From Escherichia phage Ge15, in the sequence record PP359696.1: a DNA stretch of 64,000 nt. One strand, given 5' to 3'. The notes beneath the pieces were generated by a model. That model did not search any database. It was not told where the DNA came from and saw nothing but the letters and a program-made list of their open reading frames with translations. Positions 25,409-33,696 of the stretch are shown piece after piece (the stretch's first letter is position 1; every line of letters begins with the position of its first letter). Made by a program: the position numbers and the translations under genes.

Positions 25409-26235
<827 letters not shown>

Positions 26236-26243
26236 AATAACGC

Positions 26244-26603
26244 GTGGCGGAAAATATGAATTTTAATTATTACCCTATTTTATTAGAAAAAGACGCGAAA
26301 CAGCCAAAGTGGCAGGGTCCTCAGTTTATTAAAGGTGTCTATCAATTAGTAGTTCCTAAAGACAAGATTTACAGCAGTTGTTTCACTGAATCCGCTTGCA
26401 GTATTTTCGGTAATAGTTCTCCGTATTGGAATTTTGACATAAAGCTGGATAGAAATATCGATATTTGGTTGAAAGCTATGGATATTGGTAATATCACGTT
26501 TGATGAGAATAATTATCATATTATTGGTCGCTTTTCCAAACGTGGCAAAGAATTATATTTCACACCTGAAATTGAGAGAAAATTTGATGCTAAACCGTAT
26601 TGA
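26244..26603 (+). CDS. hypothetical protein inserted between frd and td
   Basis: 119-aa ORF (possible start at MNFNYY, 26256); no recognisable motif. Confidence 0.5.
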   Translation: MAENMNFNYYPILLEKDAKQPKWQGPQFIKGVYQLVVPKDKIYSSCFTESACSIFGNSSPYWNFDIKLDRNIDIWLKAMDIGNITFDENNYHIIGRFSKRGKELYFTPEIERKFDAKPY

Positions 26604-26618
26604 TTATATAGGTGTTAA

Positions 26619-27479
26619 ATGAAACAATACCAAGATTTAATTAAAGACATTTTTGAAAATGGTTATGAAACCGATGATCGTACAGGCACAGGAACAATCG
26701 CTTTGTTCGGTACTAAATTGCGTTGGGATTTAACTAAAGGCTTTCCTGCAGTAACAACTAAAAAGCTCGCCTGGAACGCATGTATTGCTGAGCTTCTATG
26801 GTTTATTTCCGGTTCTACCAATGTTAATGATTTACGTCTTCGTACTCATGGTAGTCTTATTCAAGGTAAAACTATCTGGGATGACAATTATGAAAACCAA
26901 GCTAAAGACCTAGGATATCATAGTGGTGAACTTGGTCCAATTTATGGAAAACAGTGGCGTGATTTCGGTGGTGTGGATCAATTAGTTGAAACTATTGATC
27001 GTATTAAAAAATTACCAACTGATCGACGTCAAATCGTTTCAGCATGGAATCCAGCTGAAATCAATCAAATGGCATTACCGCCCTGTCATATGTTCTATCA
27101 GTTTAATGTGCGTAATGGTTATCTTGATTTACAATGGTACCAAAGAAGTGTAGATGTTTTCTTGGGATTGCCATTCAACATTGCCTCGTACGCTGCCTTG
27201 ACGCATATTGTGGCTAAGATGTGTAATCTTATCCCAGGAGATTTGATATTTTCTGGTGGTAATACTCACATCTATATGAATCATACTGAGCAATGTAAAG
27301 AAATTTTACGTCGTGAGCCTAAAGAACTATGTGAACTTAAAATTGATTGGCCTATAGAGTTTGGAAATTGTGACACCGAAACACAGCTTTACTGGTTAAC
27401 TGAATACATGAAACCGAAAGATTTTATCCTTGAAAATTATGAATCGCATCCAGCAATTAAAGGGAAAATGGCAATATGA
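26619..27479 (+). CDS. td: thymidylate synthase, uninterrupted
   Basis: 286-aa continuous ORF with full ThyA motifs (PPCH, DxxLGxPFN); no intron. Confidence 0.95.
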
Positions 27480-27739
27480 TTTTACGATTTAAAGATACTT
27501 CTGGCGTTGTTCTTTTTACACTTCCTAATCCAAGCGAGTTAGAAGTTCCAGGACCAGAACAGCCTATTATCATTTATGGCAAAAAATATTATACTCATAA
27601 AATGACTCGTGAGTATTTTGATAATAAAATTTCTACAGTTAAAACTTCTTCTGATTGTTATTATGATATTACTGTTTTAACGGAAAAACAATATGACGAA
27701 TTATTACCACGCGTGCCGTCTATGCCGGGTAGTGAATAA
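27476..27739 (+). CDS. hypothetical protein
   Basis: 87-aa ORF coupled to td. Confidence 0.45.
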
Positions 27740-28019
27740 ATATAAATCCGACTTTGATGTTAATATTCACCGTGGTACATTTTGGGGAAATTACGTCGGT
27801 AAAGATGCTGGCAGCCGGGAGGCTGCCATTGAATTATTCAAAAAAGATTTTATACGTCGAATTAAATCCGGAGAAATAACTAAAGCACATTTAGAGCCTT
27901 TACGTGGAATGAGGCTAGGATGCACATGTAAACCAAAGCCGTGTCATGGTGATATAATAGCTCATATAGTTAACCGATTGTTTAAAGACGATTTTCAAGT
28001 TGAGGACTTATGCAATTAA
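27693..28019 (+). CDS. hypothetical Cys-rich protein
   Basis: 108-aa ORF; start uncertain, overlaps the previous ORF. Confidence 0.4.
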
Positions 28020-30274
28020 TTAATGTTATCAAAAGTAGTGGTGTTTCTCAGAGCTTTGACCCGCAAAAAATTATTAAAGTTTTATCCTGGGCAGCTGAAG
28101 GAACATCTGTAGATCCTTATGAATTATATGAAAATATTAAATCATATCTCCGTGATGGAATGACCACTGATGACATTCAAACCATTGTAATTAAGGCTGC
28201 TGCGAATTCTATTTCAGTTGAAGAGCCTGATTATCAATACGTAGCCGCTCGCTGTTTAATGTTTGCTCTTCGTAAGCATGTTTACGGACAATATGAACCA
28301 CGTTCATTTATTGACCATATTTCTTACTGTGTAAATGAAGGTAAATACGACCCTGAATTATTGTCAAAATATTCAGCAGAAGAAATTACATTTTTAGAAT
28401 CAAAAATTAAGCACGAGCGGGATATGGAATTTACTTATTCCGGGGCGATGCAATTAAAAGAAAAATATCTCGTTAAAGATAAAACCACTGGTCAAATTTA
28501 TGAAACTCCGCAGTTTGCATTTATGACTATTGGAATGGCATTGCATCAAGATGAACCTGTTGATAGATTAAAACACGTTATTCGTTTTTATGAAGCAGTA
28601 TCTACTCGACAGATTTCATTGCCAACTCCTATTATGGCTGGCTGTCGTACTCCGACTCGACAGTTTAGTTCATGCGTTGTTATTGAGGCAGGTGATTCAT
28701 TAAAGTCTATCAATAAGGCTTCCGCTTCAATTGTTGAATATATCTCCAAACGCGCTGGAATTGGTATTAACGTTGGTATGATTCGTGCCGAAGGTTCTAA
28801 GATTGGCACAGGTGAAGTGCGTCATACTGGTGTTATTCCTTTTTGGAAACATTTTCAGACTGCTGTTAAATCATGCTCACAGGGTGGAATTCGTGGCGGC
28901 GCTGCTACTGCTTATTATCCTATTTGGCATTTGGAAGTTGAAAATCTTCTCGTTTTGAAAAATAACAAAGGTGTAGAAGAAAACCGTATCCGTCATATGG
29001 ATTATGGCGTTCAACTGAATGACCTAATGATGGAACGATTCGGAAAGAATGATTACATTACTTTGTTCAGTCCGCATGAAATGGGTGGTGAGCTTTATTA
29101 TTCTTATTTTAAAGACCAAGACCGTTTCCGTGAATTATATGAAGCCGCAGAAAAAGACCCTAATATTCGTAAAAAGCGTATTAAAGCCCGTGAACTGTTT
29201 GAATTACTCATGACTGAACGCTCAGGAACAGCAAGGATTTATGTACAGTTCATTGATAATACGAATAACTATACTCCATTTATTCGTGAAAAGGCACCTA
29301 TTCGTCAGAGTAACTTGTGCTGTGAAATTGCTATTCCAACAAATGATGTGAATAGTCCTGATGCTGAAATTGGATTGTGTACTCTCTCTGCATTTGTGTT
29401 AGATAACTTCGATTGGCAAGACCAAGATAAAATTAATGAATTAGCAGAAGTCCAAGTTCGTGCTCTTGATAATCTTTTAGATTACCAAGGATATCCAGTT
29501 CCTGAAGCAGAAAAAGCTAAAAAGCGTCGAAATCTTGGTGTAGGTGTTACTAACTATGCAGCTTGGCTGGCAAGTAATTTTGCTTCTTATGAAGATGCTA
29601 ACGATTTAACACATGAACTATTTGAGAGATTACAGTATGGACTCATCAAAGCATCCATTAAGCTCGCCAAAGAAAAAGGACCTTGCGAATATTATTCAGA
29701 CACTCGTTGGTCTCGAGGCGAATTACCTATCGACTGGTACAATAAAAAGATTGACCAAATCGCAGCTCCAAAATACGTTTGTGACTGGTCGGCGCTGCGG
29801 GAAGACCTTAAGCTCTTTGGCATCCGTAATAGCACATTATCAGCACTTATGCCATGTGAGTCATCTTCCCAAGTTTCTAACAGTACAAACGGTATCGAGC
29901 CTCCACGTGGACCAGTCTCTGTTAAAGAATCAAAAGAGGGTTCCTTTAATCAAGTCGTGCCCAATATTGAGCATAACATAGACCTCTATGATTATACGTG
30001 GAAATTAGCTAAAAAAGGTAATAAACCTTATCTTACGCAAGTAGCTATTATGCTTAAATGGGTGTGTCAATCAGCTTCAGCAAATACATATTATGACCCG
30101 CAGATTTTTCCAAAAGGAAAGGTTCCAATGTCAATAATGATTGATGACCTTTTGTATTTTTGGTATTTTGGCGGAAAAAATTTCTATTATCATAATACCC
30201 GTGACGGTTCTGGTACTGATGATTATGAAATAGAAACTCCAAAAGCTGAAGATTGTGCAGCGTGTAAATTGTAA
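28010..30274 (+). CDS. nrdA: ribonucleotide reductase large subunit (class Ia)
   Basis: 754-aa ORF, same length as T4 NrdA; ATP-cone and catalytic motifs. Confidence 0.95.
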   Translation: MQLINVIKSSGVSQSFDPQKIIKVLSWAAEGTSVDPYELYENIKSYLRDGMTTDDIQTIVIKAAANSISVEEPDYQYVAARCLMFALRKHVYGQYEPRSFIDHISYCVNEGKYDPELLSKYSAEEITFLESKIKHERDMEFTYSGAMQLKEKYLVKDKTTGQIYETPQFAFMTIGMALHQDEPVDRLKHVIRFYEAVSTRQISLPTPIMAGCRTPTRQFSSCVVIEAGDSLKSINKASASIVEYISKRAGIGINVGMIRAEGSKIGTGEVRHTGVIPFWKHFQTAVKSCSQGGIRGGAATAYYPIWHLEVENLLVLKNNKGVEENRIRHMDYGVQLNDLMMERFGKNDYITLFSPHEMGGELYYSYFKDQDRFRELYEAAEKDPNIRKKRIKARELFELLMTERSGTARIYVQFIDNTNNYTPFIREKAPIRQSNLCCEIAIPTNDVNSPDAEIGLCTLSAFVLDNFDWQDQDKINELAEVQVRALDNLLDYQGYPVPEAEKAKKRRNLGVGVTNYAAWLASNFASYEDANDLTHELFERLQYGLIKASIKLAKEKGPCEYYSDTRWSRGELPIDWYNKKIDQIAAPKYVCDWSALREDLKLFGIRNSTLSALMPCESSSQVSNSTNGIEPPRGPVSVKESKEGSFNQVVPNIEHNIDLYDYTWKLAKKGNKPYLTQVAIMLKWVCQSASANTYYDPQIFPKGKVPMSIMIDDLLYFWYFGGKNFYYHNTRDGSGTDDYEIETPKAEDCAACKL

Positions 30275-30915
30275 TGAATTATCAAAAAATCTATAACGAC
30301 CTAATTTCCCGAGCTCAGGCTCGGGAATCTTTATCAGAATATAAAGAGACACATCATATAATCCCTAGATGCATGGGAGGTTCTGATGATAAAGAAAATT
30401 TAGTTGAATTAACAGGTAGAGAGCATTTTATAGCTCATTGGCTTTTATGCAAAATATATGACACCCCAGGATTAAAGAAAGCTTTTGGTTTAATGTGCTT
30501 GACTGGTAAAAATCGCTCATATAAAATTTCTTCTCAACTATACGAATTAGGTAGACGACGTTTATCTGAAGCTGCTATAGGACGTGAAGTTTCTATAGAA
30601 ACCAGGGAAAAGATAAGTAGAGCTCTTAAAGGAAGGAAATTTACCAAAGAGCATTTAGCTCGCATGAGAAAACCTAAAACCGAAGAAGCTAAAAAGAATA
30701 TAGCTGCTGCTAAAGTCGGCGTGCTTAATCCGATGTATGGTACAATCTCTCCGACAAGAGATGTTCCTCATACTAAAGAAACTCGCGATTTGATTTCTTT
30801 GAGAACTAAGCAAAGTATAGAGTATCCGCCTTGTCCGCATTGTGGCAAGAAAGTTAATAAAGGCAATGCTCTAAGATGGCATTATGATAAATGTAAATTT
30901 AAGGATTCTAAATGA
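30274..30915 (+). CDS. mobE: HNH endonuclease (mobE-like, free-standing)
   Basis: HHIIPRCMGGSDDKENLVELTGREHFIAHW HNH motif; located between nrdA and nrdB as T4 mobE. Confidence 0.7.
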   Translation: MNYQKIYNDLISRAQARESLSEYKETHHIIPRCMGGSDDKENLVELTGREHFIAHWLLCKIYDTPGLKKAFGLMCLTGKNRSYKISSQLYELGRRRLSEAAIGREVSIETREKISRALKGRKFTKEHLARMRKPKTEEAKKNIAAAKVGVLNPMYGTISPTRDVPHTKETRDLISLRTKQSIEYPPCPHCGKKVNKGNALRWHYDKCKFKDSK

Positions 30916-32081
30916 GTACAGTTTTTAATACATCCCCTGTTAATATTTTGACTGAGCCGATGTTTTTTGGTTCTGGATTGGGTTTAGCTCGATATGATAT
31001 TCAACGACATAGAGTATTTGAAGAACTTATTGAGAAATCTTTATCATTTTTTTGGCGTCCTGAAGAAGTAAACTTGATGATGGATGCTGCACAATTTAAT
31101 AAGCTTCCTCAGTATCAGCAAAATATTTTTACTAATAACCTGAAGTATCAATCACTTTTGGATAGCATTCAGGGTCGTGCGCCGTCTGCTGTACTTATGT
31201 CGTTAATTTCAGACCCAAGTCTTGATACATGGGTTGCTACATGGACTTTTAGCGAAACTATTCACAGCCGTTCATATACTCATATTATGCGAAATCTTTA
31301 TACTGATCCATCAAAGGTATTTGATGAGATTGTATTAGATAAAGCTATCATGAAACGCGCTGAATCTATTGGTCGTTATTATGATGACGTTCTAGTTAAG
31401 ACTCGTGAATATCAGAATGCGGTTGAAGATTATGAAGGAATTTTATCAGAAGGATTTCGTAAAGAAGAGTTAGGCAAAGTTGTTGAATGTACTAAACGAG
31501 CACTAATGAAATCTCTTTACCTCTGCCTGCATGTAATCAACGCATTGGAAGCTATTCGTTTTTATGTATCTTTCGCATGTACCTTTAACTTCCATAAGAA
31601 CATGGAAATCATGGAAGGTAATGCCAAGATTATGAAGTTCATTGCACGTGATGAGCAGCTTCACCTTAAAGGCACCCAATATATTATTCGTCAACTTCAA
31701 TCCGGTACTGATGGCGATGAATGGGTTAAAATTGCTCAAGAGTGTGAACAAGAAGCAGTTGATATTTTCATGGAAGTTAACCGCCAAGAAAAAGATTGGG
31801 CAGTTCATTTATTTAAAGATGGCGATGTTCCTGGATTAAATACAAATAGCATGTGGAGCTTTATTGATTACTTAACTGTATCTCGTATGAAACAGTGTGG
31901 TCTTCCATGTCCAATTACCGATGCTCCGGTTAAACATCCATATCCTTGGATTCGTGAATACCTTAATTCTGATAATGTTCAATCCGCGCCGCAAGAAGTA
32001 GAACTGTCATCTTACCTTGTAGCACAGATTGATAATGATGTTGATGATAAAGTTATGATGAGTTTTAAAAAATATTTTTAA
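30912..32081 (+). CDS. nrdB: ribonucleotide reductase small subunit, uninterrupted
   Basis: 389-aa continuous ORF; no intron. Confidence 0.95.
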   Translation: MSTVFNTSPVNILTEPMFFGSGLGLARYDIQRHRVFEELIEKSLSFFWRPEEVNLMMDAAQFNKLPQYQQNIFTNNLKYQSLLDSIQGRAPSAVLMSLISDPSLDTWVATWTFSETIHSRSYTHIMRNLYTDPSKVFDEIVLDKAIMKRAESIGRYYDDVLVKTREYQNAVEDYEGILSEGFRKEELGKVVECTKRALMKSLYLCLHVINALEAIRFYVSFACTFNFHKNMEIMEGNAKIMKFIARDEQLHLKGTQYIIRQLQSGTDGDEWVKIAQECEQEAVDIFMEVNRQEKDWAVHLFKDGDVPGLNTNSMWSFIDYLTVSRMKQCGLPCPITDAPVKHPYPWIREYLNSDNVQSAPQEVELSSYLVAQIDNDVDDKVMMSFKKYF

Positions 32082-32108
32082 GGAGTGGGCCGCAAGGCCC
32101 ATTTTATT

Positions 32109-33696
<1,588 letters not shown>

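Follow-up and report, generated by a model that had tools for sequence, protein, structure and literature searches.

The closest described systems are the mobE loci of the T-even phages. MobE-dependent nicks have been mapped in nrdB of phage T2 at nt 122–126 on the non-coding strand, and MobE makes no nick at the nrdB intron insertion site (Wilson and Edgell, 2009, PMC2790892). In the same work, polymorphisms at nrdB nt 114–131 were proposed to protect the genomes which carry mobE. Codon 42 was found to be AAG in all mobE-less phages, and AAG, AAA, CGG or CGA in mobE-carrying ones (PMC2790892). In laboratory progeny of the type mobE+ I-TevIII−, the recombination point was located within the first 189 nt of nrdB (PMC2790892). 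T4 crosses have shown super-Mendelian inheritance of mobE, which was lost upon deletion of the HNH motif. Regarding the expression of T4 mobE, a weak internal terminator has been demonstrated experimentally (PMC2790892), and an overlap of stop and start codons has been described as an arrangement for translational coupling (PMC2988022). The middle promoter of T4 nrdB sits in mobE and, according to Wilson and Edgell, selects against mobE deletion (PMC2790892). Activity of T4 MobE was never shown in vitro, and the authors allowed that the protein might instead regulate another nuclease (PMC2790892). Both the gene arrangement and the proposed self-protection have already been known for T-even phages since 2009, and T6 has a layout identical to the one reported here.

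The stretch of DNA analysed, referred to as the window, consists of 64 kb of Escherichia phage Ge15 (PP359696.1), of which a region of 6.4 kb was in focus. The genes of this segment, listed below, form the nucleotide-metabolism cluster typical of Tequatrovirus (T4-like) phages:

25654–26235, frd.
26244–26603, ORF of 119 aa with no assigned function (phrog_1928).
26619–27479, + strand, td (thymidylate synthase), 286 aa, uninterrupted (Pfam Thymidylat_synt, 1–266/266, E 7e-96).
27476–27739, nrdA.2.
27693–28019, nrdA.1.
28010–30274, + strand, nrdA, 754 aa, with a TAA stop overlapping the mobE ATG (TAATGA).
30274–30915, + strand, mobE, 213 aa, T6/LZ7-type allele, between nrdA and nrdB.
30912–32081, + strand, nrdB, 389 aa, uninterrupted (Pfam Ribonuc_red_sm), with its ATG overlapping the mobE stop (ATGA).
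32085–32519, denA, 3' of nrdB and followed by rnlA.

The 6.4-kb region was matched by 450 phage records at a coverage of at least 80%, the top one being Escherichia phage KAW1E185 (96.9%).

The initial annotation had proposed that a free-standing, mobE-like HNH gene is located between nrdA and nrdB. This was borne out by the comparison with annotated T6 mobE (97.4% nucleotide identity, five residues differing) and with the genes of KAW1E185, Lutter and VEc20 (98–99% nucleotide identity). By sequence comparison, the 213-aa ORF is unambiguously mobE, in the form of the T6/LZ7 allele. The protein matched the homing endonuclease family phrog_655 (E 1.7e-66) and the Pfam HNH model at aa 21–44 (24.4 bits for a cut-off of 21.4), and NUMOD3 was also detected. 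In MobE, an HNH module at the N-terminus is followed by NUMOD3 repeats and, at the C-terminus, by a CxxC...HxxxC module; these elements were assigned as follows:

30343–30438, + strand, region coding for the HNH catalytic motif, aa 24–55, KETHHIIPRCMGGSDDKENLVELTGREHFIAH.
30580–30636, + strand, top-scoring NUMOD3 DNA-binding repeat, aa 103–121.
30826–30894, + strand, C-terminal zinc-finger-like motif, PPCPHCGKKVNKGNALRWHYDKC, unchanged in every examined MobE allele of 213 or 232 aa.

The catalytic motif is essentially identical in T4 and T6 MobE. A search of PDB sequences with the 213-aa protein returned only marginal matches to the HNH motif (E 0.19 or worse), in which a group II intron maturase and McrA aligned through their HNH regions, and no informative homologue; a search of NCBIfam gave no match over the cut-off.

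In the T4 reference record, a 141-aa mobE matches the N-terminus of the window protein and the 83-aa nrdB.1 its C-terminus (98%). That the window ORF is a fusion of these two genes was ruled out. The split in NC_000866 is due to two 1-nt insertions which are absent from ECO4 and mogra, and the re-sequenced T4 records HM137666 and MT984581 carry one annotated mobE of 699 nt and 232 aa; the window ORF and T4 mobE hence represent alleles of a single gene. The T4 gene codes for a free-standing HNH protein in the same slot between nrdA and nrdB, with 57 nearly identical N-terminal residues and 83 C-terminal residues which are 98% identical and include the invariant CPHC...HYDKC motif common to both. 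In contrast, overall amino acid identity is only 76% (T4T, 232 aa), the middle of the protein is divergent and T4 MobE has one extra NUMOD3-like repeat. T6 and LZ7 (MH550421, AY262134, DQ178119) resemble the window more closely: the slot is shared, the ORF has 642 nt and 213 aa and overlaps nrdA and nrdB in the same way, and nrdB is uninterrupted. A third allele, the RB3/Aplg8-type HNH gene, occupies the same slot and is 95% identical over its first ~165 nt (HNH module), whereas its product is 243–248 aa long and its C-terminal half is unrelated. Its DNA recognition is therefore presumably different.

The three elements which control mobE and nrdB in T4 were all found to be kept in the window:

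30268–30279, sequence ATTGTAATGAAT, in which the mobE start overlaps the nrdA stop (UAAUGA).
30306–30337, + strand, intrinsic-terminator-like hairpin in the 5' end of mobE, TTCCCGAGC-TCAG-GCTCGGGAA then TCTTTATC.
30865–30888, + strand, equivalent to the middle promoter of T4 nrdB and lying within the mobE 3' end, with MotA-box-like AATGCTC and −10 TATGAT.

The hairpin itself (30306–30327) has a predicted energy of −16.9 kcal/mol (z −4.5) and corresponds to the internal terminator of T4 mobE, so that a similar function may be expected. The MotA box differs from that of T4 (AATGCTT) by one substitution, and by analogy with T4 the element probably acts as the nrdB middle promoter.

Absence of introns from td and nrdB was verified by alignment to T4. 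In the T4 reference annotation, both genes are made of two exons, and the introns, which the initial annotation had also mentioned, house I-TevI and a defective I-TevIII. In the window, both frames are unbroken, follow the spliced T4 genes colinearly and have the lengths of the spliced products, in agreement with the continuous ORFs first noted. BLAST and global alignment revealed that exactly the T4 td intron and the 598-nt nrdB intron are missing. The T4 td exons align to 26616–27166 and from 27171 onward, and the T4 sequence flanking the nrdB intron aligns to 30664–31576 and from 31579 onward. The equivalents of the insertion sites are:

Between 27167 and 27168, + strand, td intron insertion, TCTTGGGA followed directly by TTGCCATT, with the frame running across.
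Between 31578 and 31579, + strand, nrdB intron insertion, CTTTCGCAT followed directly by GTACCTTTA, with the frame running across.

Alignment with T4 showed no frame interruption at the nrdB position. Searching the whole 64-kb window with Rfam at gathering thresholds gave no match to any RNA family, group I introns included; therefore no group I intron is present. A cryptic intron is ruled out by these continuous ORFs, by their spliced lengths and by the Rfam result.

The combination of intron-free td, mobE and intron-free nrdB is common. A 213-aa mobE adjoins an uninterrupted nrdB in T6, where td differs from that of the window by carrying the intron with I-TevI. Eleven records from eight phages (KAW1E185, FL08, slur02/04/11/13, AdolfPortmann and FelixPlatter) are colinear with the window over the whole 6.4 kb as a single alignment piece, and share with it the intron-free td, the 213-aa mobE and the intron-free nrdB. 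They differ from it in nucleotide sequence, with an identity of only 95–97%, and the window is therefore a distinct isolate. Most of the T4 nrdB intron is present in 118 records and most of the td intron in 197, while td was matched in 668. Intron-free alleles are the majority state and T4 the unusual one. The td gene bears no relation to mobE.

The initial annotation had linked the missing intron to the question of how the genome is protected from its own endonuclease. This link does not hold. The nick site at nt 122–126 and the intron insertion site at nt 664/667 are separated by ~540 nt, the former being upstream, so self-cleavage is unaffected by the lack of an nrdB intron, and intron absence was ruled out as the source of the problem. 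T4 meets the same question of self-protection despite its intron, in which the defective I-TevIII is mobilised in trans by MobE; the window lacks a passenger of this kind. The hypothesis published by Wilson and Edgell for nt 114–131 fits the window sequence. The region concerned is:

31025–31042, unstranded, counterpart of nrdB nt 114–131, the polymorphic region nicked by MobE; the nicks at nt 122–126, mapped in T2, correspond to 31033–31037.

Comparison of this cleavage region with T2 was done as had been suggested. Codons 38–44 read GAA CTT ATT GAG AAA TCT TTA in the window and GAT TTA ACC GAA AAG CAG TTG in T2, a difference of 11 out of 21 nt resulting in D38E, T40I and Q43S. They are identical in T6 and KAW1E185 and lie directly upstream of the invariant block coding for FFWRPEE. 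At codon 42 the window has AAA, which is among the codons published for mobE-carrying phages. Over 100 nt spanning the nick site, identity amounts to 100% with LZ7 and 99% with T6. T4 nrdB is also polymorphic at nt 114–131, with a different variant (codons 42–45, CGG CAG ATC AGT versus AAA TCT TTA TCA in the window). The position of the nick made by the window allele is taken from the T2 mapping and should be considered as probable. The middle third of the window protein differs from that of T4 MobE, and position or specificity of nicking could therefore differ.

The site variant is strongly associated with the mobE allele. Among 35 records with a 213-aa-type mobE (at least 95% identity), 34 also bear the window-type nrdB site (at least 95%), and in the sole exception, HMD-9, the amino acid variant is unchanged and the nucleotide differences are synonymous. 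The same variant was found in the other three Tequatrovirus genomes with a 213-aa mobE which were inspected, HMD-9 with its synonymous differences, and it is absent from the mobE-less T2 and KRT47. The mobE-less EPIMRB01 has the window variant and the mobE-less SCS4 a related one. Of the genomes with an RB3-type HNH gene, Aplg8 bears the window-type site and RB3, which unlike the window also has an nrdB intron with full-length I-TevIII, a T2-like nick region. These four genomes break any simple one-to-one rule between mobE and site. The relation is correlative, and the variant is suggested to confer resistance to nicking.

Comparison with KRT47, a relative without mobE, gave a well-delimited pattern. 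All 39 mismatches in nrdB fall in nt 6–211, while nt 212–1170 (959 nt) and the next 500 nt are identical; nrdA is near-identical until 18 nt before its end. From T6, the window differs at only two of the first 250 nrdB positions, and past nt ~211 it is KRT47-like and not T6-like. The segment was delimited as:

30917–31122, + strand, inferred co-conversion tract, with the 39 differences from KRT47 confined to nrdB nt 6–211.

This pattern is read as a homing co-conversion footprint, and it agrees with the recombination point found in laboratory progeny. The window has the appearance of a genome produced by a MobE homing event, perhaps a recent natural one, with a co-conversion tract of ~211 nt. 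The nrdB intron would be missing because the tract ended far before nt 667 and no intron was present in the backbone.

Altogether, the locus is best explained as an intron-free td/nrdB background in which a T6/LZ7-type mobE homes into mobE-less relatives, the host being spared by substitutions at the nick site; this explanation is considered likely as a whole. It draws on observations made here: how the locus is built, which mobE allele it contains, the link between this allele and the site variant, the footprint against KRT47, and purifying selection on mobE. By analogy with T4, small amounts of MobE would be translated from transcripts reading through from nrdA, its expression being checked by the internal terminator and by the coupling of stop and start codons. 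In a mixed infection, MobE would nick the non-coding strand of nrdB from mobE-less relatives at about nt 122–126. Repair templated by the mobE-carrying genome would then transfer mobE to the recipient together with a short flanking stretch, so that the substitution cluster located exactly at the enzyme's own nicking region would be co-inherited with mobE. It is proposed that this cluster, present in the nrdB of the host genome itself, is what spares that genome. The window would correspond to a backbone similar to KRT47 and IME09 which gained mobE and ~211 nt of donor sequence at the 5' end of nrdB.

Protection could alternatively come mainly from down-regulation of mobE through terminator and translational coupling, or from harmless repair of nicks templated by sibling genomes, the nrdB 5' variants being hitch-hiking donor sequence rather than determinants of resistance. 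The conserved hairpin and TAATGA overlap are compatible with tight down-regulation, co-conversion alone accounts for nrdB variants travelling with mobE, and the T2-like site of RB3 accompanies an HNH gene. The differences from T2 are however densest exactly at nt 114–132, with three amino acid changes (11 out of 21 nt) beside the FFWRPEE-coding block, and in the published logos, phages with and without mobE are likewise divided at the nick region (PMC2790892). Moreover, an endonuclease cutting its own multi-copy genome would win no transmission advantage. This alternative is regarded as improbable.

Whether mobE is functional was addressed by comparing the alleles from Tequatrovirus, Dhakavirus LHE83, Mosigvirus LF82-3 and Klebsiella phage Mexia, all of which have 213 unbroken codons. 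Pairwise dN/dS values against the window gene were 0.04–0.18, with dS up to 1.2, and the HNH residues are invariant across the MobE alleles compared. This argues for purifying selection on the protein, which would not be a relic. Inactivating substitutions in the HNH motif, which had been raised as a possible objection, were looked for and none was found, nor was any disruption of the frame. An inactivated ORF is ruled out by the intact motif, the unbroken frame in all alleles examined and the dN/dS values. The gene looks functional, and nuclease activity of this allele is probable in view of the intact motif and the low dN/dS. A last explanation holds that mobE codes for an inactive endonuclease kept solely for the nrdB middle promoter and for linking nrdA and nrdB expression, which would therefore make self-protection moot. 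It can invoke the promoter counterpart within the 3' end of mobE, which selects against deletion, and the fact that in vitro activity of MobE was never obtained (PMC2790892). Retention of the promoter would nevertheless constrain only ~30 nt, yet the 213-codon ORF is whole in four phage lineages under the selection described above. Invariance of the HNH residues and of the C-terminal Cys/His motif is contrary to retention for the promoter only, and the sharp footprint against KRT47 implies recent mobility, contrary to an inactive MobE. This explanation is hence given little credit, and a functional, mobile mobE is retained as the preferred one.

In SPO1 and SP82, the endonucleases I-HmuI and I-HmuII compete in mixed infections. 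The 213-aa MobE (T6 and window) and the 232-aa MobE (T4) have nuclease and C-terminal modules in common, while their middle segments and the neighbouring nick-site variants differ. The idea that each of these alleles nicks the nrdB of the other, and that they compete in mixed infections, is speculative and rather doubtful. If true, the site variants would represent allele-specific immunity and not generic resistance.

The initial annotation was right in recognising mobE, in noting the absence of both introns and in expecting action on nrdB of co-infecting mobE-less relatives. The significance it implied is unsupported: the arrangement is common, the nick site is far from the intron site and a hypothesis for protection has been published. 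As a discovery the locus is of little weight, since layout and protection hypothesis have been known since 2009 and T6 is alike. Its modest value lies in being a clean natural example, in which a near-identical mobE-less relative delimits both the mobE insertion and a ~211-nt tract spanning the nick site. The length of this downstream tract is consistent with those measured in laboratory crosses. Window and relative supply matched nrdB alleles, presumed resistant and sensitive, which may be used for a direct test of MobE immunity.

The slot between nrdA and nrdB was found to be occupied by three distinct HNH alleles of 213, 232 and 243–248 aa, the first of which is that of the window. All three have one module in common (approx. 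95% identity), but in the middle or C-terminal segments for DNA binding they diverge or show no relationship. The compared features are the following:
30274–30438, the HNH module of approx. 165 nt
3501–4232 in L006 and 1001–1747 in L008, the loci used for HNH allele comparison

The nrdB nick region (nt 114–131, with the MobE nicks mapped in T2 at nt 122–126) stays T2-like in RB3, and the HNH allele of the RB3 type therefore probably aims at another target.

In the T4 reference NC_000866 (5217–5917), the region corresponding to window 30274–30915 is annotated as two ORFs, mobE (141 aa) and nrdB.1 (83 aa). This split is caused by two 1-nt insertions in comparison with ECO4 and mogra. A single mobE of 232 aa is annotated in the re-sequenced T4 records HM137666 and MT984581, so that nrdB.1 appears to be an artefact stemming from the older reference.

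Sequence comparison along frd, td and nrdB delineated three further features in the window:
26244–26603, + strand, an ORF of 119 aa between frd and td (phrog_1928)
27123–27197, + strand, the equivalent in td of the I-TevI homing site
31400–31500, + strand, a hypervariable patch in nrdB (nt ~490–590)

The 119-aa ORF gave no match in Pfam. It is present in T2, T6, KRT47 and KAW1E185, while in T4 it is missing and frd directly adjoins td. Between the homing-site equivalent and the T4 td exon junction, 21 of 75 nt differ; the protein sequence is conserved over the homing site, and the CNNNG cleavage motif is retained as CAAAG. The C-terminal ~45 aa of td diverge from T4, similarly to the nrdB patch, in which T2, T4 and T6 display ~60% identity to the window (T4 with a length difference of one codon) and KRT47 and KAW1E185 99–100%.

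Finally, the mobE-linked type of nick-site allele was detected in the nrdB 5' region of two phages devoid of mobE, EPIMRB01 with the same allele as the window and SCS4 with a related one. Both phages could be resistant survivors or the outcome of mobE loss.
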